Source: a phage. Taken from it: a DNA stretch of 64,000 nt. Positions 3,240-61,140 of the stretch are shown here, in pieces. The stretch lies in the NCBI GenBank assembly GCA_036611895.1, contig GCA_036611895.1_4766.1, one strand, 5' to 3'. The notes below the pieces were generated by a model. The model worked only from the letters and a program-made list of their open reading frames with translations, was not told where the DNA came from and did no database searches. The translations under genes were made by a program, and so were the position numbers. Numbering within the stretch: position 1 is the stretch's first letter; each line of letters begins with the position of its first letter.

Positions 3240-3794
3240 TTACGCCTTTAATAACTTAATAAGGTTCTGGAAAGCTGGTAGATTTACGCCAGCATGGATT
3301 GCACCGATTGCATCAGCTAAGTGCTCATTCTTATTCAGAAGTTTGCCCTTCTTATCGGTGAGCCAGTTGGCTTCAGGATAGATGGCATGAGCAGCACGAA
3401 TCATCGTGTCTTTGGATGCAGTTTTATCACCGACCAGTGCAAGTTTGTTTTCAATTGGGGATACTTCAAAGATTGGACAACCCAATGCACGAAATGCACC
3501 GATTAATCCTACGCATACACCATAGGATTTCATACCGTTAGCAGACTGAGAGCCTACTGGTACTTCTACGAATACTGCTTTAGCAGATCGTAACCATTCC
3601 TCACAACCAAGAAACAAATCGTAAGCGGCTTGTATATCTTTGGAGTTGGTTCGAACTTGTTTGTTGTGGTCAACTTCAGTTTGAACCAGTTTAAGTTCGA
3701 CCTGCTCGAAGACGCCGGACTCAATGTCCAGCATCCCACGAGCTAAACCCCAATTGCGGAGACTAATGTCTGCACCAACAATTGGGATTTTCAT
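3240..3794 (-). CDS. RuvC-like Holliday junction resolvase
   Basis: N-terminal IVGADIS, mid VFVEVP and C-terminal EHLADAIGAIHAG resemble the RuvC catalytic D, E and HxADA motifs. Confidence 0.55.
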   Translation of the reverse strand: MKIPIVGADISLRNWGLARGMLDIESGVFEQVELKLVQTEVDHNKQVRTNSKDIQAAYDLFLGCEEWLRSAKAVFVEVPVGSQSANGMKSYGVCVGLIGAFRALGCPIFEVSPIENKLALVGDKTASKDTMIRAAHAIYPEANWLTDKKGKLLNKNEHLADAIGAIHAGVNLPAFQNLIKLLKA

Positions 3795-15120: not shown

Positions 15121-17181
15121 TTACTTAGTAGCCTTGATCAGCTTGGTAGCTAACTTAGTTTCTTCTTCAGTCAGTCCCATTGCAGTGAATGACTTCTTAG
15201 CATGACGCTTATAGTCTTGCAGAGCATGGCCTTTCTGATAGTCAGAGTACGTCGTATCGTTAAGGATGCTACGCAGATTATCAGCGTGTTTACCAGACGG
15301 AGCTACTTTAGTGGCAGCAGCAGAACGTGTAGGTTTAACTGTCTTATCCTGCTTAACAGCTTTAGGTTTACCAATAGGTTTAGCTGTATAGGTAGCACGT
15401 ACATCAGCAATCTTAGCTACTACATCACTACCTACACCGAATGCACCCCAAGGCTTTCTGGCTTTGGAACGCAGTTCTACCAGAAGGTCAGCAGCAGCTA
15501 ACTTATCTTCCGGTGTTGTTGCATTAAGGAACTCTTTGACTAGTTCCTGGATTTGTTCTTTCACAGTAGGAGCCTTCTTAATAGCAGGTTTAAGGTCAGT
15601 AGCTTTCACTGGTTCAGCAGCTACAGCTTCATTCAGCGACTCTTCCATGTTCAGCGCTTCTTTGCTAGCGACTGTACGGAATTGTTCTACAGAACCAGAT
15701 GTGAGATTAGTGTATTTGAGGTTAGTACCACGATGACCACCAACCATAATAAGTGTGGTAGGTGAACTATGGTTCCCAACGATGGCATCATTAAGCAGCT
15801 TCTTACCTACCTCTGTCTTAGACAGATAGATACCGCTGTTAACGTTAAGACGTTCCTCTTCCGGTAGTTCAGCAATAATATGATATGCAGATACACGCAT
15901 CTTATTGGTGCTGTACTCAGGAACAGCAAATACATCTTCAGGTGCTACTTTACCAAGGATAGTTACGTCACCACCGAAGCTACGGATATAGCTCATGGAT
16001 GCTACGTGCAGACCGTTAGAACAATCCTGACGACGGTCAGGGTCTACCAGGTCTTCACGTACCTGAACTTTACAGCCTACCCATTGACGAATTCTACCTG
16101 AGTGACAGTCAACGAATACACGTCTACCATTTTCTGCGTCTTTATACTTCAGACGCTTCAGGAACAGGATTGAACCATCATCAGCAATAGGTAGCTCAGC
16201 AGTTTCCATGAATTTCATCAGGTCTTCTACTGAGTGCAGACGGTCTTTAATAACCGGAGCCAGACGCTCAAGGAACTTAGTAAAGCCCTTGTAGTCTTTC
16301 AGCTGGGCAGACTGACGTAGATGACGATGCAGGTTTTCAACTCCGGGGATAACCCCATTATTGGTAACAGCAACAACCACTTCGTCTTCCTTCACTTCGG
16401 TGTGAAAGTTAGCATCATCAGTACTGATAGCACCTAATGCAGCCAGCTTCTCAGAAGCAGCAGCCAGCTTATCCTGGTTCGTAGTTTTAGCTATTTCTAC
16501 ATAAGGAGATGGCGTTACATCACGACTGGTAAATACAATGTGTACTCCTTTGATGTGCTGAGCTTGTTTAGCAAACTCACTCATTTCATCATCGGATACT
16601 GCACGAATTGCAATAGGCCATTCTCGTGCAAGGATACGATTGGTATGGTCATAACCCCAACTCAGTACGTCATTGATAAAACGAACCAGTGCAGGATGGT
16701 TATGGTCCTTATCCCAGCCAGTAACCCACATCAGGTTTTCACGTCTGTCGTAGAAACCATCAGATACAGTTACTTCTGGTTCATTAGCCTGTACAGCCAG
16801 GAAGGTATCCATAGCTTTAGATACTAACGTCTTAGTAGGATTGCCCAGCTTAATATCTGAGACGATATGTGCAGGAGGAACACCTGTACCATCCTGGAAG
16901 AACTCTTTAAGTTTAGCTTTAGCTACCTTGAAGAAACGGACGAATCCGTTGGTGTTCTTCTCTGCTTCTAGATACTCAGTACGTAATGCTACTTCTGGCG
17001 CAATGTTTACTTCTACCAGGTCTTTGGTGGTTCCCAGACCTTTGGTTTGTGCTTCAGATACAATGCGAGCAACCCGTGGGTCGTTCTGAGGATATACAAT
17101 TGTGGAGCCATCAGGCTTCCACAGTGTGAGGTTACGACTGTCAACTGCCAGTGCGATGATAGAAATCAGTTCGATTTTCAT
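15121..17181 (-). CDS. rIIB: rIIB-like protein
   Basis: 686-aa ORF immediately downstream of the rIIA-like gene; assignment mainly by pairing and size. Confidence 0.4.
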   Translation of the reverse strand: MKIELISIIALAVDSRNLTLWKPDGSTIVYPQNDPRVARIVSEAQTKGLGTTKDLVEVNIAPEVALRTEYLEAEKNTNGFVRFFKVAKAKLKEFFQDGTGVPPAHIVSDIKLGNPTKTLVSKAMDTFLAVQANEPEVTVSDGFYDRRENLMWVTGWDKDHNHPALVRFINDVLSWGYDHTNRILAREWPIAIRAVSDDEMSEFAKQAQHIKGVHIVFTSRDVTPSPYVEIAKTTNQDKLAAASEKLAALGAISTDDANFHTEVKEDEVVVAVTNNGVIPGVENLHRHLRQSAQLKDYKGFTKFLERLAPVIKDRLHSVEDLMKFMETAELPIADDGSILFLKRLKYKDAENGRRVFVDCHSGRIRQWVGCKVQVREDLVDPDRRQDCSNGLHVASMSYIRSFGGDVTILGKVAPEDVFAVPEYSTNKMRVSAYHIIAELPEEERLNVNSGIYLSKTEVGKKLLNDAIVGNHSSPTTLIMVGGHRGTNLKYTNLTSGSVEQFRTVASKEALNMEESLNEAVAAEPVKATDLKPAIKKAPTVKEQIQELVKEFLNATTPEDKLAAADLLVELRSKARKPWGAFGVGSDVVAKIADVRATYTAKPIGKPKAVKQDKTVKPTRSAAATKVAPSGKHADNLRSILNDTTYSDYQKGHALQDYKRHAKKSFTAMGLTEEETKLATKLIKATK

Positions 17182-51906: not shown

Positions 51907-53127
51907 ATGACTACGGAAGCTGCAACCACAGCTTCCGACATTCTCGCAATGTCGGATGATGAGATTCTGAATATGGAAGCCCCAGCAATTATTGCTGAGG
52001 AAGATACTTCCACTCAGAACAACCCAGAAACCAACGGCGTACAGACTCCTGATGAAGAAGTTGACCCCTCTGCTGTTGAAGACCTACCAACCGAAGAAAC
52101 CTCCCCTGAAACTGAGCCAGTTGAAGATGATTCAGCAAATTCTTTAACTTCTGATAAAGTTGATGATAAAGTTGTTGACACAGAAGTTGATAGTAACGGT
52201 GAGCCGATTACTAAAGCTGAACCTTCTACTACTGAACCAGGCCAGGAACAGAAAGAAGAAGGCAAACAGTCTGAAGGTCTGCCTGCTGACTTCAACTATA
52301 AGGAAGGTTATGAAAAGTTGATGGCTCCTTTTAAAGCTAACGGCAAAATGATTACTCCCCGTTCTCCGGAGGAGGCCATTAGCCTGATGCAGATGGGTGC
52401 TAACTATACTCGTAAGATGCAAGAACTTCAGCCGTACCGTAAGGTAATGCTGATGTTACAGAACAACGGTTTAATGGATGAGGAAAAACTTTCTTTCCTG
52501 ATTGACCTGGATAAAAAGAATCCTGAAGCCATTAAAAAGTTGTTGAAAGACTCTGGTACAGATCCTCTGGACTTTAATCCAGAGGAGGAAATTAACTACC
52601 AGGGTGGCAAACACCGTGTTACAGACACCGAAGCAGATTTTGCAACCGAAATTGACGACTTAAAGTCTACTCAAGAAGGACAAGCTACATTAGGTGTTAT
52701 TAGTTCGACATGGGATGCTGCCAGTAAAGATGCTCTTTATCAGAATCGTGGCTTACTCCACACCATTCACGAACAGCGTGAGAATGGTATTTATGACACC
52801 ATTGCTAATGAAGTGAATCGTCTTCAGGTGTTAGGTCAGATTCCGGTAGGTACTCCGTTTATTCAGGCTTATAACTACGTTGGTAACCTCCTTGCACAAC
52901 AGGGAGCATTTAACCAAGTAGCTAAGCCTGAACCGGTACAAGCAGTTAAACCAGCAGTTCAGCCGGTAGTGCGTGTAGCACAACCTAAGCAGACTCTGGC
53001 TAACAGTGAGCAAGCTAAAGCAGCTTCCCTTAATCGGGCTGCTACACGTAAAGCAACACCTATTGTGAACCCACTCGCTATGAGTGATGAAGATTTCGCT
53101 AAACTCCCAGTACCGGGTAGTCTTTAA
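51907..53127 (+). CDS. scaffolding-like acidic protein
   Basis: Highly acidic Glu/Asp/Thr-rich N-terminal region; directly upstream of the capsid gene. Confidence 0.4.
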   Translation: MTTEAATTASDILAMSDDEILNMEAPAIIAEEDTSTQNNPETNGVQTPDEEVDPSAVEDLPTEETSPETEPVEDDSANSLTSDKVDDKVVDTEVDSNGEPITKAEPSTTEPGQEQKEEGKQSEGLPADFNYKEGYEKLMAPFKANGKMITPRSPEEAISLMQMGANYTRKMQELQPYRKVMLMLQNNGLMDEEKLSFLIDLDKKNPEAIKKLLKDSGTDPLDFNPEEEINYQGGKHRVTDTEADFATEIDDLKSTQEGQATLGVISSTWDAASKDALYQNRGLLHTIHEQRENGIYDTIANEVNRLQVLGQIPVGTPFIQAYNYVGNLLAQQGAFNQVAKPEPVQAVKPAVQPVVRVAQPKQTLANSEQAKAASLNRAATRKATPIVNPLAMSDEDFAKLPVPGSL

Positions 53128-55122: not shown

Positions 55123-55965
55123 ATGATTATGTCTTGTTCTGCTGAGGTAGAAGCTAACCGACTCCTAGAAGAGTTAACTAAGGGTGATGACTTTACCCTT
55201 CCTGATATTGATATGTCCGGTCCTGAATGGGATATACCTGGTGGAGATGATTCCCCAATCTTTGGGGCCATTACTAAAGTAACAAATGAATCTCTTACTA
55301 CTCGTGAAGTAGGTGGTAGTGGTACGTTTGATGCATTAATGGAATCCGCACACAATCACCTTAAAGCTGAGTTTAAGGCTAACCGTATTACAGGTGGTGA
55401 ATATACCAAAGCATATATTGCTATGATGGAATCATGCATGAGTAATGCTGTTCAGTTCTTACTTGGTCGTGACCAGGCATACTGGGCTGCTGCATTGGCA
55501 CAGATTCAGGCAGTTACTGCTCGTGTTACATTGGCTACTTCTAAAGCTCAGTATGTACTGGCTAAGATACAAGCATTGTCTACTAAGGGTGAATACGCTC
55601 TTACTAAGATGAAGATTGCTACTGAGTCTGAAACATACTGTGCTGCATTATTTAATGTACAAAAAATTCTTCCTGCACAGGAGCGTTTGATACAGGAACA
55701 ATATGAAGTACAACGTGCACAGACTCAGGAAATGCGCTCTGATGCATTACCTATTCTTGGTTCTATTGGTAAACAGAAAGAGTTGTATTCTCAGCAGATT
55801 ACTTCGTATCAACGAGATGCAGAAGTTAAAGCAGCTAAGCTGTTTACTGATGCATGGATTACTCAGAAGACTATTGATGAAGGCTTGAATCCACCTAATG
55901 GCTTTACTAACGCAAGTATTGATACCATTCTAACCAAGCTGAAGTCTAACAACGGGCTGAACTAA
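55123..55965 (+). CDS. virion protein
   Basis: 280-aa ORF. Confidence 0.4.
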
Positions 55966-55966
55966 T

Positions 55967-58621
55967 ATGGGCTTATTCAGTGGGAAGACCAAAGTATACG
56001 TAGCATCCTCTGTCTATAACATGGCAGGGGATATTCACAAACGTCCTAACTATATGAAGACTGTAGTCATTGGTAACATTATTTCCAATACAGGATTCAC
56101 TATGGCAGACACTATCTCTGATAGTTATCTGAATGGACCCGGTATTCGTATGCGACTGTTCTCCAGCTGGAGTAAGAACCACTATGATTCAGAAGTTGGT
56201 ATGGCTGGTTCTTCATTAGGTGTACTGGCTAAGATTGACCCTACTGTAATAGAGGGTCAAATTACACCTCCTGCTGGGGAGTCTGTTTATGTTCAGGCAG
56301 CAGAGATTGGCTTTGCTGATTTTGAGCAATGGTGTGACCAGTACCTTTATGAGAATGCTCCAAGTCGAATCATGGAACGATTCGACGTAGACATTGATGA
56401 GGATACCAATGAAATTACTATGACCTCCCTGGATGGAGGTTCTACTATTAAATTCACACCTACCAACTTTGAACCAGGTGCTTTGTATCTCTATGCTGAT
56501 TACACGTCCTATAAGTCCCCTACTACTAATCCACCTGTAGTAGGACCGACTACTGTCTATGATGATGAGGATGACTTACCCTCTACTTTGTTATGGACTA
56601 CCATCTCAAGTGATACTACGGCCAATTCAACTAACCTTACCAAAACTATACATACTCATTCTGTTTACTCTGATGGCAGACCTGATGAAGACAGTACTGT
56701 CATTGAACCAAGCATAGATAATTGGAACTCTTACGTTAAGGTTTATCGTAGAGGATTCACTGAGAAACCTGATGATGTGACTGTAGTTGTATCTGACAGG
56801 GTAATGACCCATAGAAAGTTCGGTGAGATTCAGTCCAGTACTGCTGTAACTACCAATGTAGTAGATATTGGTGGGGGTGTTACTCGCACAGACACAATCA
56901 CTACAACCACAGAGACACTGGTTCGTAAGTACTCATCTCAGACTACTCGTACTGACACAGAGATGACTGCTGTTGGTACACCTAAGATGCTTATCTATAA
57001 ACAGAACTCTGGTAATGTTGCACTGGATTCTCTGTTTGAGACTGAGGCTACTGATAACCGATTCTACCCGTTCATTCCAATCAGGAATGATAAACGATGG
57101 GTAGAAAATGACCCAATCTACCCACACTGTAAGAAAGCTCTTTATAAAGCTACTGGTGGAAAAATTGATAAAGTAGTCACGGAGCTTAAGAAGAATGATG
57201 ACATAGGTGATATTCAGTACATTTATGGCACATTTGGTGTATCTCTTAATACCCCAGAAGATGCTGCTAAGGAATACATCTACCGTTTCTTTCAGATGGC
57301 TACTGAAGCATTCCCACCTGACCCAACCTACCCGACTTTGGAAGCAGTAATTGCAGGTTATCAGGCAGCTAATGATGCAGTTGATGCATATGTAGAATGG
57401 TGGAACAGGACTGAAGGGCATACTATTGGAACTCCTCCACCACTGCCAGAATACCCTGTAATACCTAAACGAGAGTTTAGAGTGCATAGTAATAAGCATT
57501 ATAAATACGACATGACCATTGGTTGGAACTATGTGTCTGAAACTACACATTCAGGGCAAGCATGGGCTGGGGCTAAGCAGGGACAACTACGAGCCAGATA
57601 TGCAGGAGATATAACCCTTACTCGCAAGAACATAAGGACAGCTTCTAACTCCGGTTCTGCTAAGAAACTTGAGGTAACATATACATTCTATTCAATGCAG
57701 GAGTATGAGTTACTTTGGCAGGATGGTAATAACACTTACCGTAAACTCAGAGTATTGGGCCTAAACCACAATAACAGGGTATATAAGAATAAGTCAGTGC
57801 ACATTGATGTTGCTGAAGCAATGGGTGATGCAGAAGAAAGTGGATTCATTATTCCACTGCACACTAACATTTACCGTTCAATGTCACTGGTTCGAAGTAC
57901 TCAGCTATCTACTGCCTGTTCCTACTTAGTGATGAACTCATATAAGAAGGTTAAGCAGAAATGGTATCAGACCGGGGCATTTAAGATTGTTGTTGTAGTG
58001 GTTGCTGTGGTTATTTCTGTATTTACAGCCGGTGCTGGTGGTGCAGGCATACTTGGTGCATATGGTGCAGTTGGTGCTTCACTTGGTTTTGTTGGATTAG
58101 CTGCTGTGATAGTTGGTGCTGTAGCAAATGCTATTGCTGGAATGATTCTGGTATCCATTATCACTAAAGTATCCACATCACTGTTCGGTGATAAATTGGG
58201 CTTTATTATTGCAGCTATTGCCTCAATGGTAGCTATGAATGTTGGTACTGCCCTGTCTACCGGTACATCTCTGTCCACTCTGGCAAGTGAAATGATGAAT
58301 GCCCAAAACATCATGCAGCTTACCAGTTCAGTAGGTAATGGTATTAGCCAGTATATTAATGCATCTACGGCTGCTACTATTCAGAAAGCAGAGAAAGTAA
58401 TGCAGCAGTACAATACTGATATGATGGCAATCAATAAGCAGTATGAAGAAATGTTTGGTACTGCTGGACAGGGTGTAATTGACCCTATGCAATTCGTGTC
58501 AATGGAGTCACTGGATTCATTCTTATCACGTACTCTTATGACTGGTTCAGATATAGCCGACATGTCTTTAGACATGATAGGTAACTACTCTGACATGACC
58601 CTTAATACTGACCTAGTTTAA
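55967..58621 (+). CDS. large virion protein with C-terminal multi-TM region
   Basis: 884 aa; residues encoded around 57970-58320 form consecutive Gly/Ala/Val-rich hydrophobic helices. Confidence 0.45.
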   Translation: MGLFSGKTKVYVASSVYNMAGDIHKRPNYMKTVVIGNIISNTGFTMADTISDSYLNGPGIRMRLFSSWSKNHYDSEVGMAGSSLGVLAKIDPTVIEGQITPPAGESVYVQAAEIGFADFEQWCDQYLYENAPSRIMERFDVDIDEDTNEITMTSLDGGSTIKFTPTNFEPGALYLYADYTSYKSPTTNPPVVGPTTVYDDEDDLPSTLLWTTISSDTTANSTNLTKTIHTHSVYSDGRPDEDSTVIEPSIDNWNSYVKVYRRGFTEKPDDVTVVVSDRVMTHRKFGEIQSSTAVTTNVVDIGGGVTRTDTITTTTETLVRKYSSQTTRTDTEMTAVGTPKMLIYKQNSGNVALDSLFETEATDNRFYPFIPIRNDKRWVENDPIYPHCKKALYKATGGKIDKVVTELKKNDDIGDIQYIYGTFGVSLNTPEDAAKEYIYRFFQMATEAFPPDPTYPTLEAVIAGYQAANDAVDAYVEWWNRTEGHTIGTPPPLPEYPVIPKREFRVHSNKHYKYDMTIGWNYVSETTHSGQAWAGAKQGQLRARYAGDITLTRKNIRTASNSGSAKKLEVTYTFYSMQEYELLWQDGNNTYRKLRVLGLNHNNRVYKNKSVHIDVAEAMGDAEESGFIIPLHTNIYRSMSLVRSTQLSTACSYLVMNSYKKVKQKWYQTGAFKIVVVVVAVVISVFTAGAGGAGILGAYGAVGASLGFVGLAAVIVGAVANAIAGMILVSIITKVSTSLFGDKLGFIIAAIASMVAMNVGTALSTGTSLSTLASEMMNAQNIMQLTSSVGNGISQYINASTAATIQKAEKVMQQYNTDMMAINKQYEEMFGTAGQGVIDPMQFVSMESLDSFLSRTLMTGSDIADMSLDMIGNYSDMTLNTDLV

Positions 58622-58634
58622 CAGGAGAATCCCT

Positions 58635-59078
58635 ATGGATTTGTCATTCTTAACAGGCAACCAAACCCCACAGCCAGCTGCTATGTCTTGGATGTCTAAT
58701 AACAATCAGAACTTTAATACCCCGGCTATGAACTATAACCCTGGTGCTGCTATCGGTATGGGTACAAATTTGGGGGCAACTTCCCCTACTTCTTTCATGT
58801 CGGGTTCAGCTAATCAGTTGGGCCTGAATGTACCCACCTTCCAGTTAGGACTGGGTGCACTTGGTTCATTAGCTAATATCTATAGTGGTTTCCAGGCCAA
58901 TAAGTTAGCCAAAGACCAGTTGAACTTTACTAAGAGTGTTACTAACACTAACCTGAATAACCAGATTAAGTCTTATAACACTGCACTGGAAGACCGTGCT
59001 CGTAGCCGTGCTGTTGCAGAAAACCGTGACCAGTCTTCAGCTGATGCTTACATTGCAGCTAATAAATTAACCCGTTAA
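58635..59078 (+). CDS. virion protein
   Basis: 147-aa Asn/Gly/Ala-rich ORF. Confidence 0.4.
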   Translation: MDLSFLTGNQTPQPAAMSWMSNNNQNFNTPAMNYNPGAAIGMGTNLGATSPTSFMSGSANQLGLNVPTFQLGLGALGSLANIYSGFQANKLAKDQLNFTKSVTNTNLNNQIKSYNTALEDRARSRAVAENRDQSSADAYIAANKLTR

Positions 59079-59090
59079 TAGGAAACCATC

Positions 59091-61037
59091 ATGGCTCAAA
59101 TTACATGGCGTAATGTTGATGCACCTAACTTCTCTGGAGTTGGTGACAGCATTCGCACATTTGGTAGCATGATTGGTAACGCCACCTCCGGCTTAAGTGA
59201 TGCACTGGGTAATTTCCAGAACGCTGCCAAGCAGGAGGCTGGCAATGCCGTCATGATGAATGCTATGCAGTATCAAGACCCTACTGAGTATCGTAATGCT
59301 TTGGCATCCGGTGCATTGTTCCAGGGGGTTGACCCTTCACTCGTAAACCAACATACCCTGCAGAATCTGGATGAGCGAGCAGGTACTCTGTTGACCCAAC
59401 AAGGTCAGCAGGGAATTAATGACTACAATGTTTATCGTTTTGGTCGTTTACAGGATAATGACTCTGCATTAGATAATGCATCTCCAGCTATTCGTTTACT
59501 GTCTGAGGCTTATCAGTCTGGCGACCAGAATCGTATTAATGCAGCATTGAGTCAGACTCGTGATGCACTGTCTGCACTTCCTGCTGACCAACAACTGGAT
59601 ATGCTGAGCCGTCTTCAAGGTCAGGGTGGTCAGGCTATTAACCAAGCACAGAACCGCTTTGATTTGGGTGTGGCTCAACGCAATGATGCGGATTCACAAG
59701 CTGCATCCGGTATATTGACGGACATTTTCCGCAGTGCTTCTACACCTATGGATGCTCTTACACTGGCAGAGTCTGCTATGAAGAATGCTTCTCCTGGTGT
59801 ACGTGCTGCAATCATGCGAGGTGTGAACCAGAGGTTCCCGGGTACTTATGCTGCATCCCCTTCTGGCTCTTCTCCAGGAACTGCTGGTACTCGTTCTGGT
59901 TCCCCTTACGATGCAACCTATACCTTTGCAGCTACTGATAAGCCTATTACTGAGATGACCCTTGGTGAGGTTACTAACCATCAGCAAACTATGATTAATA
60001 ACCCATCACAAGGTCATTCTCCTGTAGGTGCATTCCAGATTAATAAAGCTACCCTGGAAGACTATGCTCCTAAGGTGCTTGGTTCAAATTGGCGTAATCA
60101 GCAAATGACTCCTGAAGTGCAGGACAAAATAGCTGAAGCAATCTTCAATGACCGTAAGAATGGTAACCTTTCTAAGACTTGGGCTGCATTGCCTGACCTT
60201 GGTGTGGGTGGTTATAAGGACATGCCTTGGAGTGAAGCACGTCAGTTAATTGCACAGGCAGAGGTAGGTGCATCTCTTGAGCAGTTACAGACCCAACAAG
60301 TAGTTTCAAACATGGCAGGCAATACAGTTGCTGCACGTCAGTCTGAAGATAATACTGGAACCATTACTGCTAACTATGCTCGTGCATTACGTGATAACTC
60401 TACCATTGGTGAAGTAGCAGACCGTCTTCTTAAGGATGCTTTTAAAGGTTCTGAGAAAGGATGGATGATAGCTCGACTGAATGATGTTATGCAGGAATCC
60501 GGACAGTCTCCTGCTGTAGCTGCTGAGATTCTTAAGCAGTCTACTACCAACGTACCGGAAGGTATGATTAGTCGAGCACTCGATGCACTTAACCCATTTA
60601 TCTCCAATGAAGGTGGTGGTGGTATTCGCATTGATGATACCGTTGCCAGAGAACTGGCACGTTCAGTACGTCGTGGGGAAGGTATTGAAGCTACTGCTCG
60701 TGATAGTGTTCTTACTCAGGTGCAAGGTAATATTGCAAATGCCCAGAACCAGGTAACGCAAGCAGAAGCCTTACTTGCTGATACTCGCCGTCGTGTAGCT
60801 GCTGGACAAAGTGGGCTTGCTGCTACTATTCCTGCTCGTGAGGCTGAGTTAGTAAGAGCACGGGCTGCACTGGATGCTGCTGTCAATACTGTGGTAGCTA
60901 ACCAAGGAAACCTGGTTCCACAGAACTTCCGTTCTAATGCTTCAGTAGAACGTGAGCGTAGTCGTGAAGATGAAGAACGAGCTAGACGTTATCGAAAATT
61001 AGCAGAGGGTTTACCTCCCTATATGCAACCTCGATAA
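59091..61037 (+). CDS. large virion protein (possible peptidoglycan-hydrolase-like motif)
   Basis: 648 aa; SPVGAFQINKATLEDY loosely resembles the lytic-transglycosylase GxxQ motif. Confidence 0.35.
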   Translation: MAQITWRNVDAPNFSGVGDSIRTFGSMIGNATSGLSDALGNFQNAAKQEAGNAVMMNAMQYQDPTEYRNALASGALFQGVDPSLVNQHTLQNLDERAGTLLTQQGQQGINDYNVYRFGRLQDNDSALDNASPAIRLLSEAYQSGDQNRINAALSQTRDALSALPADQQLDMLSRLQGQGGQAINQAQNRFDLGVAQRNDADSQAASGILTDIFRSASTPMDALTLAESAMKNASPGVRAAIMRGVNQRFPGTYAASPSGSSPGTAGTRSGSPYDATYTFAATDKPITEMTLGEVTNHQQTMINNPSQGHSPVGAFQINKATLEDYAPKVLGSNWRNQQMTPEVQDKIAEAIFNDRKNGNLSKTWAALPDLGVGGYKDMPWSEARQLIAQAEVGASLEQLQTQQVVSNMAGNTVAARQSEDNTGTITANYARALRDNSTIGEVADRLLKDAFKGSEKGWMIARLNDVMQESGQSPAVAAEILKQSTTNVPEGMISRALDALNPFISNEGGGGIRIDDTVARELARSVRRGEGIEATARDSVLTQVQGNIANAQNQVTQAEALLADTRRRVAAGQSGLAATIPAREAELVRARAALDAAVNTVVANQGNLVPQNFRSNASVERERSREDEERARRYRKLAEGLPPYMQPR

Positions 61038-61054
61038 AATCTTACATACTAATA

Positions 61055-61079
61055 AAGCCCCATCCGGGGCTTTTCTCTT
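61055..61079 (+). terminator. rho-independent terminator
   Basis: AAGCCCC-ATCC-GGGGCTT followed by TTTCTCTT. Confidence 0.6.
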
Positions 61080-61140
61080 ACATTCACTTACTGTACAGTG
61101 AATCTTCTTATACGATATAAGTTTGAACAGGAATCATGCT

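Follow-up and report, generated by a model that had tools for sequence, protein, structure and literature searches.

The window, a 64,000-nucleotide stretch of phage DNA, shares 93% identity with the Gamaleyaviruses ZQ2 and St11Ph5 and, judged by its sequence, comes from a Gamaleyavirus, an N4-like coliphage of the G7C type. The interval from 55967 to 61037 contains three genes, with products of 884, 147, and 648 aa, in an order that matches gp54-gp53-gp52-gp51-gp50 of N4 (Table 1). The three proteins are, with hardly any room for doubt, homologs of N4 gp53, gp52, and gp51, respectively. The 884-aa protein aligns over residues 1-883 with residues 1-883 of the “Gp53” chain of PDB 9YFT (phmmer; E=0, 1064 bits) and matches phrog_2220 (E=0). 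The 147-aa protein matches the “16.5 kDa protein” of PDB 9YF4 (E=7.6e-46), the “N4 gp52-like protein” of 8VXQ (E=4.2e-4), and phrog_2646 (E=2.4e-51), whereas the 648-aa protein is 46% identical to full-length N4 gp51 and matches the “66 kDa protein” of PDB 11MN (E=3.6e-115) and phrog_6126 (E=8.8e-303). The next open frame, confirmed from 61141 to the end of the window, aligns through its residues 1-952 with residues 1-957 of the “Virion DNA-directed RNA polymerase” of PDB 9PNR/11GP (phmmer; E=0).

The original prediction described two genes at this locus and suggested that their products could jointly make up the cell-envelope penetration machinery. Both open reading frames are real and were correctly delimited, but the 147-aa frame between them was overlooked; the proposed machinery holds in outline, the genes being homologous to gp53, gp52, and gp51 of N4. 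The interval probably encodes the proteins by which an N4-like coliphage gates its tail and ejects its genome, and its tail plug and two ejection proteins are already known components of such phages. What is new is a previously unannotated lambda R-like domain in gp51.

Table 1. Positions of genes, domains, and motifs in the window
Feature	Coordinates	Strand	Basis or remark
884-aa homolog of N4 gp53 tail plug (DEV gp74 family, PHROG 2220)	55967..58621	+	phmmer, PHROG, gene order
Predicted N-terminal half of the hydrophobic knot, plug aa 29-56	56051..56134	+	N4 gp53 residues 29-56, ungapped N-terminal alignment; knot defined in PMC13434306
Gly/Ala/Val/Ile-rich hydrophobic helices, plug aa 666-765	57962..58261	+	Kyte-Doolittle; N4 residues 670-716 are the second knot half
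147-aa homolog of N4 gp52 (16.5 kDa protein; DEV gp73-like outer-membrane pore ejection protein)	58635..59078	+	PDB and PHROG matches
648-aa homolog of N4 gp51 (66 kDa virion protein; T7 gp15-like periplasmic tunnel ejection protein)	59091..61037	+	PDB, PHROG, AF2
Long-helix “leg” (tunnel wall), gp51 aa 41-248	59211..59834	+	AF2, DSSP helices
Lambda R-like (GH104-type) lysozyme-superfamily domain, gp51 aa 271-393	59901..60269	+	inserted between helical halves
Motif SPVGAFQINKATLEDY, gp51 aa 310-325	60018..60065	+	G313 and Q316 invariant
Candidate catalytic helix WSEARQLIAQAEV, gp51 aa 380-392	60228..60266	+	C-terminal of core; ends in invariant Glu391 (codon 60261-60263)
Virion RNA polymerase (N4 gp50 homolog), N-terminal 953 codons	61141..64000	+	frame runs past window end

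The central domain of the gp51 homolog

In the AF2 model of the full-length gp51 homolog (pLDDT 83.7), the leg consists of helices 41-59, 64-73, 87-143, 146-161, 165-215, 219-230, and 235-248 (DSSP) and matches the part of the N4 decamer that has been resolved, residues 52-255 (PMC13434306). Past residue 255, N4 gp51 is disordered in the 1-359 construct and has been assigned no function (PMC13434306), whereas the same region of the window protein is read here as a lambda R-like domain. This region (aa ~271-393) is the sole strongly conserved part of gp51, and 499 clusters formed at 50% identity carry it. Across 143 full-length homologs, with identity down to ~21%, only the columns of G313, Q316, and E391 are invariant; the first two are invariant in 151/151 as well as in 143/143 sequences.

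The 648-aa protein had been predicted to carry a motif reminiscent of lytic transglycosylases. That motif, SPVGAFQINKATLEDY, is real and is located inside a domain of the lysozyme superfamily; since it contributes two of the three invariant columns over the 143 homologs, it is not a chance match. It aligns with lambda R 62-TGAGRYQLLSRWWDAY-77, pairing G313 with G65 and Q316 with Q68, and further conserved residues are identical in the two proteins (Q344/Q91, W364/W124, L367 and P368/L127 and P128, and Y375/Y132). In hhalign comparisons, the domain matches lambda R with a probability of 84-94%, aligning gp51 270-378 to R 30-138. PHROG 90, the family of lambda R itself (E 3.9e-62), is matched by 37 of the 56 gp51 relatives (best E 4.2e-10); the window's own domain, used alone, has no match to it at E<1 and reaches it only through the family profile. 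The domain is modeled with a pLDDT of 89.5 (AF2), its best structural match is lambda R (1AM7/3D3D), and its structural neighbors in BFVD are baseplate-hub tail lysozymes. The central domain of gp51 is thus very probably homologous to the lambda R-type lysozymes.

There are, however, clear differences in domain organization. Lambda R is a free endolysin of 158 aa whose catalytic Glu19 lies on the N-terminal helix, whereas the gp51 domain is located inside a 648-aa ejection protein, carries an inserted helix of 14 residues (aa ~289-302), and has its sole invariant Glu on a helix that follows the core. In the alignments to lambda R, the canonical N-terminal catalytic helix is absent at the collinear position.

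Glu391 and the case for catalysis

The helix that follows the core ends in E391, which is invariant in 151/151 sequences with identity down to 35% and is found within IAxxE[S/V/T]G, a motif typical of catalytic helices in the lysozyme superfamily. With this helix relocated to precede the core, Glu391 fell on the catalytic Glu19 of lambda R in a single register in 10/10 tests, and hhalign agrees with this register. The mean PHROG 90 score was 27.9 bits for the permuted sequences, compared to 21.8 bits in the native order and 22.3 bits with a reversed helix; the gain, averaging 5.6-6.2 bits, was seen in 10/10 members and not in the reversed-helix and native-order controls, with the ten paired tests, which are not independent, amounting to one conserved helix motif worth ~6 bits. 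In the native order, there is also a weak alignment of E391 with lambda E148; even the 8KEA hub does not conserve the C-terminal helix of lambda R that carries E148. These comparisons suggest that the gp51 domain could be a circular permutation of the lambda R fold, with E391 presumably occupying in three dimensions the position of lambda E19.

The odds lean slightly toward a catalytically active domain with E391 as the acid. A competing view, considerably less probable but a serious one, is that the domain is a degenerate, dead lysozyme fold that only binds peptidoglycan, anchoring or orienting the tunnel, or serves as an oligomerization or gp50-docking module, while the wall is cut in trans, by an autolysin of the host or some other factor, as suggested by Bellis et al. 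It would account for the missing collinear catalytic Glu, the variable E293, and the apparent lack of a hydrolase reported in the literature, and a binding-only module would likewise retain the cleft residues Q316, Q344, W364, and Y375. Such a fold does not readily explain why a Glu in a catalytic-helix-like motif is invariant across the family or why it comes into register with lambda E19 once permuted.

An additional argument comes from another schitovirus lineage. The Pseudomonas phage proteins ZC03_016 and ZC08 gp16 (“peptidoglycan hydrolase,” 831 aa) are encoded at the same genomic position, flanked by the gp52-like gene and that of the virion RNA polymerase, and are virion proteins with a lysozyme-superfamily domain in mid-protein, as in the window gp51 (PMC11619397). 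In ZC08, this is a bona fide Pfam SLT domain (aa 336-443, E 2.4e-18) with the normal order of motifs, as opposed to the lambda R-like domain of the window, and apart from the GxxQ motif the two show no detectable homology (hhalign probability 0.3%). The sequences point to a domain replacement within a conserved scaffold, and the intact SLT domain found there argues for an enzymatic position. The proposal that SPVGAFQINKATLEDY itself marks an SLT/GH23-type lytic transglycosylase, with the catalytic Glu upstream of GxxQ, is highly improbable, as Pfam SLT missed the window protein and gave only sub-threshold matches to 6 of its 56 relatives, the expected upstream residue E293 varies between E, D, and Q in the 151-sequence alignment, and the nearest family is that of lambda R (GH104-type, PHROG 90).

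The tail plug and its hydrophobic block

The 884-aa protein had been taken for an internal virion or channel protein ending in hydrophobic helices. The Gly/Ala/Val-rich block is real, but it is followed by ~120 polar residues, and the protein is a homolog of the gp53 tail plug (PMC13434306; PMC12892993), which in N4 is present in a single copy on the outside of the tail tube, at its mouth (cryo-EM, PDB 9YFT; PMC13434306). A Kyte-Doolittle scan (19-aa window, cut-off ≥1.6) detected three to four segments in aa 666-765 (666-699, 695-737, and 739-765; maximum 2.53). The composition of aa 668-785 (A 18%, V 14%, G 14%, I 10%; 5 charged residues of 118) is well beyond the normal range of soluble proteins. 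The block is retained in N4 gp53 and DEV gp74 (WYxxGxFK plus a hydrophobic run; E=3.4e-14 to 9ZE4_M) and, by alignment, is the match of the “hydrophobic knot” with which the N4 gp53 helices cork the tail tube (PMC13434306); by homology, aa 29-56 would form the other half of this knot.

Segments of transmembrane length and hydrophobicity, retained even in distant schitoviruses, could instead allow the released plug to enter a host membrane, outer or inner, as a channel part or breaching device; the last ~160 residues of N4 gp53 are unresolved, in the tail lumen beside gp52 (PMC13434306). Such insertion is improbable: the N4 knot residues are folded inside the tube mouth in full and empty particles alike, the plug is still tethered to the sheath/receptor-binding protein and seems to re-seal the tube, and membrane insertion is neither shown nor proposed (PMC13434306). 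Moreover, a single copy is poorly suited to channel formation, and pore activity has already been shown for gp52 and gp51. The real candidate for the outer-membrane pore is the 147-aa homolog of gp52, which in N4 has pore activity in lipid bilayers (PMC13434306).

Related systems and a model of ejection

N4 (gp53/gp52/gp51 and gp50; PDB 9YFT, 9YF4, and 11MN) belongs to a different genus, Enquatrovirus, but has orthologous genes in identical order, and the window shares its knot residues and its entire central gp51 domain, IAQAE(T/V)G included. Pseudomonas phage DEV, with detectable plug and pore homologs (9ZE4_M, E 9e-19; 8VXQ, E 4e-4), has the same ejection model for its gp74/gp73/gp72 as the window. 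The gp51 domain profile gave no match to DEV gp72; therefore, the Litunavirus tunnel proteins seem to lack the lambda R-like domain or to have diverged past detection. T7 gp14/gp15/gp16 share the general logic: a pore protein for the outer membrane, a helical tunnel protein for the periplasm, and a large protein for the inner membrane and cytoplasm are ejected one after another, and the set brings its own muralytic domain (PMC13434306; PMC4819975). In T7, however, it is gp16, the largest protein, that carries this domain (N-terminal, SLT-type, GH23), whereas the window has a lambda R-like domain on the gp15-like tunnel protein, and its largest ejected protein is an RNA polymerase. The baseplate hub of cyanophage A-1(L) (PDB 8KEA) and the gp5-like tail lysozymes of cyano- and rhizobiophages are myovirus hubs, unlike gp51, and the 8KEA catalytic helix is collinear (residues 106-116). 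A Delftia N4-like gp51 homolog has been annotated with a “lysozyme-like domain” (PMC5735904); no public annotation naming such a domain was found for the gp51 subfamily of the window protein.

In the proposed model, aa 29-56 and ~670-716 of the plug would fold together into a greasy knot corking the 12-mer tail tube, with the ~160 residues after the second hydrophobic stretch projecting upward inside the lumen of the tail. Once the receptor is bound, the plug would be dislodged, the 147-aa gp52 homolog would be expelled to form the outer-membrane pore, and the gp51 homolog would come third, its two helical halves, N- and C-terminal, assembling into the periplasmic tunnel through which the virion RNA polymerase would travel. 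The gp51 domain must cross a channel of ~35 Å unfolded and then refold, which counts against its being active.

With the lambda R-like domain as an active enzyme, up to ten copies of this ~125-residue unit would cleave peptidoglycan for the ejectosome in mid-periplasm, using the invariant Glu391 on the helix after the core as the catalytic acid; we infer both the enzymatic activity and the location at the peptidoglycan layer. Bellis et al. (Nat Commun 2026) described the N4 ejection proteins as lacking a peptidoglycan hydrolase (PMC13434306). The lambda R-like domain may be the wall-cutting activity that structural work said N4-like phages lack.

Genomic setting and the plug and pore genes

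The interval 55967-61037, for which the original prediction proposed internal virion proteins forming a cell-envelope penetration apparatus, is flanked on one side by the genes for the portal, the major head protein and a gp54-like protein and on the other by the gene for the virion RNA polymerase. The gene order is that of N4 gp59...gp56, gp55, gp54, gp53, gp52, gp51, gp50, and the gene for the 884-aa protein lies between the tail-tube (gp54-like) and gp52-like genes, as in N4 and ZC08. Along its entire length, the window DNA shares 93% identity with the Escherichia phages vB_EcoP-ZQ2 and St11Ph5; for ECBP1, the identity is ∼92%. These three phages are N4-like podoviruses of the G7C type and belong to the genus Gamaleyavirus. 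The window also encodes a homolog of N4 gp57, a protein whose homologs are labeled “tail length tape measure protein” in RefSeq N4-like genomes; for a podovirus gene situated between those of the portal and the major head protein, such a label is strange, and it probably reflects a mis-transferred annotation.

Coordinates of the genes and other features of the region (window positions unless stated otherwise)
Feature	Position	Strand	Remarks
N4 gp57 homolog	51907-53127		
gp54-like (tail-tube) ORF	55123-55965		phrog_2050; directly before the plug gene
Plug ORF	55967-58621	+	884 aa
Plug hydrophobic block	57962-58261		aa 666-765
Antisense ORF	57967-58314	−	115 aa; exactly over the plug hydrophobic block
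gp52-homolog ORF	58635-59078	+	147 aa; between the plug and tunnel genes
Low-complexity segment of the gp52 homolog	58635-58800		aa 1-55
gp51 (tunnel) ORF	59091-61037	+	648 aa
End of >90% DNA identity in some relatives	59693		query position 3727; about aa 201 of gp51
Transglycosylase-like motif	60018-60065		aa 310-325 of gp51; SPVGAFQINKATLEDY
G+C-rich hairpin and T-run	∼61056-61080		3′ of gp51, within 61050-61140; aaagCCCCatccGGGGcttttctctt
Virion RNA polymerase, N terminus	start 61141		open frame of 953 codons, truncated by the window end; E = 0 to PDB 9PNR/11GP
N4 gp51 gene	15130-17061 (N4 sequence)	−	

The 884-aa protein aligns from residues 1-883 to residues 1-883 of N4 gp53 (PDB 9YFT; E = 0, 1064 bits) and matches phrog_2220, the tail-plug family of N4 gp53 and gp74 of the Pseudomonas phage DEV, with E = 0; over its C-terminal third, it can also be aligned with the DEV “N4 gp53-like protein” (9ZE4; E 9e-19). 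In N4, gp53 is a one-copy tail plug, the bulk of which lies outside the 12-mer tail tube; the receptor-binding sheath protein holds it, and it is present in both full and empty particles. Its residues 29-56 and 670-716 weave six short helices into a “hydrophobic knot” that corks the tube, and its final ∼160 residues vanish into the tail lumen (PMC13434306). The corresponding plug of DEV is gp74 (PMC12892993), and a single plug copy sealing a 12-mer tube is described for N4 and DEV only (PMC13434306, PMC12892993).

The hydrophobic segments that had been noticed in the 884-aa protein are indeed there: its hydrophobic block comprises 3 to 4 of them, several of transmembrane (TM) length, with Kyte-Doolittle means of 1.6 to 2.5 (maximum, 2.53) and values of at least 1.6 over residues 666-699, 695-737, and 739-765. 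Ala, Val, Gly, and Ile abound in this block, and charged residues are nearly absent. The protein does not end with these helices, however, as ∼120 polar residues come after them, and the supposed poly-TM C terminus corresponds to the knot known from the plug protein of N4 and not to part of an internal channel protein. Both knot segments are conserved in the plug alignment, the hydrophobic segment is also found in DEV gp74, and a later membrane role of the plug, though conceivable, is without support. The antisense ORF that overlies the block is almost certainly an artifact of the GCN/GTN/GGN-rich sense codons and no gene.

The 147-aa protein, which the original prediction did not mention, is homologous to N4 gp52 (9YF4, 16.5-kDa protein; E = 7.6e-46) and to DEV gp73 (8VXQ; E = 4.2e-4). 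N4 gp52 is located in the tail lumen, forms pores in bilayers, and makes up an outer-membrane complex (PMC13434306). The most hydrophobic window of its homolog, aa 62-80, reaches a Kyte-Doolittle value of just 1.14 (the membrane-active helix of N4 gp52 is 72-88); this segment is amphipathic and not a classical TM helix. The N-terminal part of the protein is of low complexity, rich in Asn, Gln, Gly, Met, and Pro, and the N-terminal third is far less conserved with respect to N4 than the C-terminal helix. A Pfam Ntox22 match in that third (E 0.007) was below the threshold and was dismissed as noise.

Two further observations concern the tunnel gene. In about one-third of the related gamaleyaviruses (PD205, U1G, UE-S5b, PBM-2/3, and others), DNA identity of >90% stops within this gene, and the central domain of gp51 in these phages, as in G7C, shows only ∼65% protein identity; this pattern indicates a likely recombination breakpoint within gp51 and two putative gp51 alleles in the genus. 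Downstream of gp51, the hairpin with its T-run, which was not flagged by a pattern scan of the window, and the ∼100-nt gap before the start of the polymerase gene suggest a transcription boundary or attenuator.

A lysozyme-like domain in the tunnel protein

The 648-aa protein is 46% identical over 628 aa to N4 gp51 (PDB 11MN; E = 3.6e-115) and matches phrog_6126, the family of N4 gp51/T7 gp15-like periplasmic tunnel proteins, with E = 8.8e-303; N4 gp51 surrounds the portal before ejection and forms a decameric T7-gp15-like periplasmic tunnel afterwards (PMC13434306). The full-length AlphaFold2 (AF2) model (pLDDT 83.7) consists of a disordered segment (aa 1-41), long helices (41-248, the published leg), a linker, a lysozyme-like domain (271-392, pLDDT 91 to 98), and more helices (396-639). 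Both sets of predicted helices are consistent with the N4/T7-gp15-type leg fold, and this architecture identifies the domain as a predicted insertion between the two helical halves of gp51, with adjacent N and C termini, a geometry that would make permutation easy. In the published N4 gp51 construct 1-359, just residues 52-255 were ordered (PMC13434306). This construct stops in the middle of the domain, after “...ARKNG” in the 11MN sequence, so that the disorder past residue 255 plausibly results from cutting the domain in half.

The gp51 family is poorly conserved along its full length except for one island, aa ∼262-393. An exhaustive HMMER search of representatives with aa 262-400 retrieved 499 clusters (50% identity; E ≤ 1e-3), nearly all of them with the domain at an equal relative position in proteins of 550 to 800 aa; a simpler homolog search with the 135-aa domain gave one match only. 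Across 143 homologs, down to ∼21% identity, Gly313, Gln316, and Glu391 are the sole invariant columns of the whole protein, and Pro285, Gly308, Thr321, Gly331, Trp334, Gln344, Leu360, Trp364, Leu367, Trp380, and Ile387 are nearly invariant. None of the 140 GenBank phage records with the domain gives it a name; the labels are “structural” or “hypothetical.” In the record of Klebsiella phage vB_Kpl_K57alpha1.2 (OY979416.1), the domain match falls under a feature labeled “RNA polymerase,” which suggests that gp51 and the virion RNA polymerase are either fused or mislabeled there. A Pfam MCM3_WHD match in gp51 was below the threshold and was dismissed as noise.

Several lines of comparison place this domain with the lysozymes, and specifically with the R endolysin of phage lambda. 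The AF2 model of aa 256-405, built from a 56-sequence alignment (pLDDT 89.5, pTM 0.82), has the two-lobed lysozyme-like fold; apart from gp51 homologs, its Foldseek neighbors among viral models are baseplate-hub and gp5-type tail lysozymes (E 1e-4 to 1e-3), and Foldseek against PDB gave no significant match. In hhalign, the family profile matches lambda R with a probability of 84 to 94% (E 7.5e-6 to 2e-7) over 92 to 93 columns, pairing gp51 270-378 with R 30-138; identical residues include G313=G65, Q316=Q68, Q344=Q91, W364=W124, L367/P368=L127/P128, and Y375=Y132. PHROG 90, the “endolysin” family of lambda R, was matched by 37 of the 56 diverse members scanned singly (best E 4.2e-10, compared with 3.9e-62 for lambda R against this, its own family), and some other members match tail-lysozyme PHROGs. 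The window's own domain sequence alone did not reach PHROG 90, so it is the family profile, together with the fold, that supports the assignment; lambda lysozyme in PDB was not reached by HMMER profiles of the domain in either native or permuted order. Taken at the level of profile and model, the domain is, with high confidence, a homolog of the lambda R (GH104-type) lysozyme. It has been overlooked because Pfam yields only subthreshold SLT and Rpf-type matches for the family (nothing in Pfam or NCBIfam is above the threshold for the domain) and because no Pfam family exists for lambda R.

The motif noticed in the 648-aa protein as loosely resembling a lytic transglycosylase active site is thus present and falls within this lambda-R-like domain; the SLT/GH23 type is not borne out. 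The window protein has no Pfam match to SLT (PF01464), which 6 of 56 relatives match below the threshold (best E 0.013), and of the SLT motif order E-S ... G-L-M-Q ... A-Y-N-x-G, the GxxQ is present, but the upstream Glu is not invariant. The observation therefore holds, and its interpretation is supported in part.

A muralytic protein in this genomic position has precedent. The Pseudomonas schitoviruses ZC03 and ZC08 encode in the gp51 slot an 831-aa protein with the annotation peptidoglycan hydrolase, which was found among the virion proteins (PMC11619397); its residues 336-443 form a canonical SLT domain according to Pfam (E 2.4e-18). Apart from GxxQ, that domain shows no detectable homology to the one in the window, so different lysozyme families fill the same position, and a muralytic gp51 slot is not a new idea. 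The plug, pore, and tunnel are likewise ordinary and described already, and the genes themselves are known. What appears to be new is the recognition of the domain in N4- and G7C-type gp51, its affiliation with lambda R, and a putatively displaced catalytic helix.

Candidate catalytic glutamate and possible circular permutation

The catalytic acid of lambda R, Glu19, is located at the end of the N-terminal helix that precedes the beta-sheet. No collinear counterpart of this helix was found in gp51: the alignments begin at lambda residues 27 to 30, and in front of the domain lies a disordered Gly/Ser/Pro linker (pLDDT <50 at 255-262). The sole invariant carboxylate is Glu391, located where the helix after the domain core ends; it is part of the motif I-A-x-x-E-[S/V/T]-G, which is similar to L-A-W-S-E-G of lambda R and to the “ES” motifs of SLT and Rpf.

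In a permutation test, three constructs for each of ten diverse members were scored against PHROG 90. The helix (377-395) placed before the core (266-376) gave a mean of 27.9 bits, compared with 22.3 bits for the reversed helix before the core and 21.8 bits for the native order. The permuted order scored best in all ten members, with an average gain of 5.6 to 6.2 bits, although the ten tests are mutually dependent and together amount to one conserved motif worth ∼6 bits. The ten permuted alignments reach profile positions 655-663 in a single register, in which the Glu coincides with lambda Glu19, whereas in the native order the helix was aligned in none of the ten; hhalign gives the same behavior. 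With all 56 members in permuted order, the number matching PHROG 90 rises from 37 to 43.

A collinear alternative would equate Glu391 with Glu148 in the C-terminal helix of lambda R. Judged on the alignment with the cyanophage A-1(L) baseplate hub (8KEA), as the retrieved homologs of lambda R were all at least 85% identical, Glu148 is not conserved even between R and that hub. Two other residues were rejected as catalytic candidates: Glu293 (“LGEV”), the expected SLT-style Glu, is Glu in 56%, Asp in 23%, and Gln in 15% of the family, and the Glu of the upstream “LAES” helix (aa ∼227; “LAEGT” in N4, similar to “LAWSEGT” of lambda) is 24% conserved, its motif occurring in 5 of 141 homologs. On these alignments, the odds that Glu391 serves as the catalytic acid through circular permutation are about even or marginally better.

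Crossing of the peptidoglycan by N4-like phages

Peptidoglycan crossing by short-tailed phages is part of the ejectosome problem; in T7, the wall-crossing activity is the gp16 transglycosylase. N4-like phages form a large family and are used in phage therapy. For N4, the muralytic activity has been described as missing and suggested to be “provided in trans” (Bellis et al. 2026, PMC13434306); no zymogram data on N4 virions were found in the searchable literature.

The steps from plug release to DNA entry are shown for N4 and, by homology, would be the same for the phage of the window. Receptor binding would push the gp53-type plug aside, allowing the gp52 homolog to exit the lumen and form the outer-membrane pore; gp51 would then be expelled and build the tunnel, followed by the RNA polymerase and the DNA. 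The central domain of gp51 could refold in the periplasm and cut glycan strands locally, letting the tunnel pass the sacculus. In its full form, this proposal holds that the N4-type tunnel protein harbors a natural circular permutant of a lambda-type lytic transglycosylase, with the Glu391 helix moved from the N-terminal to the C-terminal side, and that its decamer would carry a wall-cutting ring at the level of the peptidoglycan, supplying the missing muralytic activity; we consider it to be evenly poised between right and wrong.

The domain in gp51 offers a concrete, mutable candidate for wall cutting, with Glu391, Gln316, Gln344, and Trp364 as the residues to change, and its extent suggests better construct boundaries, ∼256-405. 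The 140 GenBank phage entries with this domain could have their annotations updated. Should the permutation prove true, it would represent a neat rearrangement of a fold upon the grafting of an enzyme into a structural scaffold.
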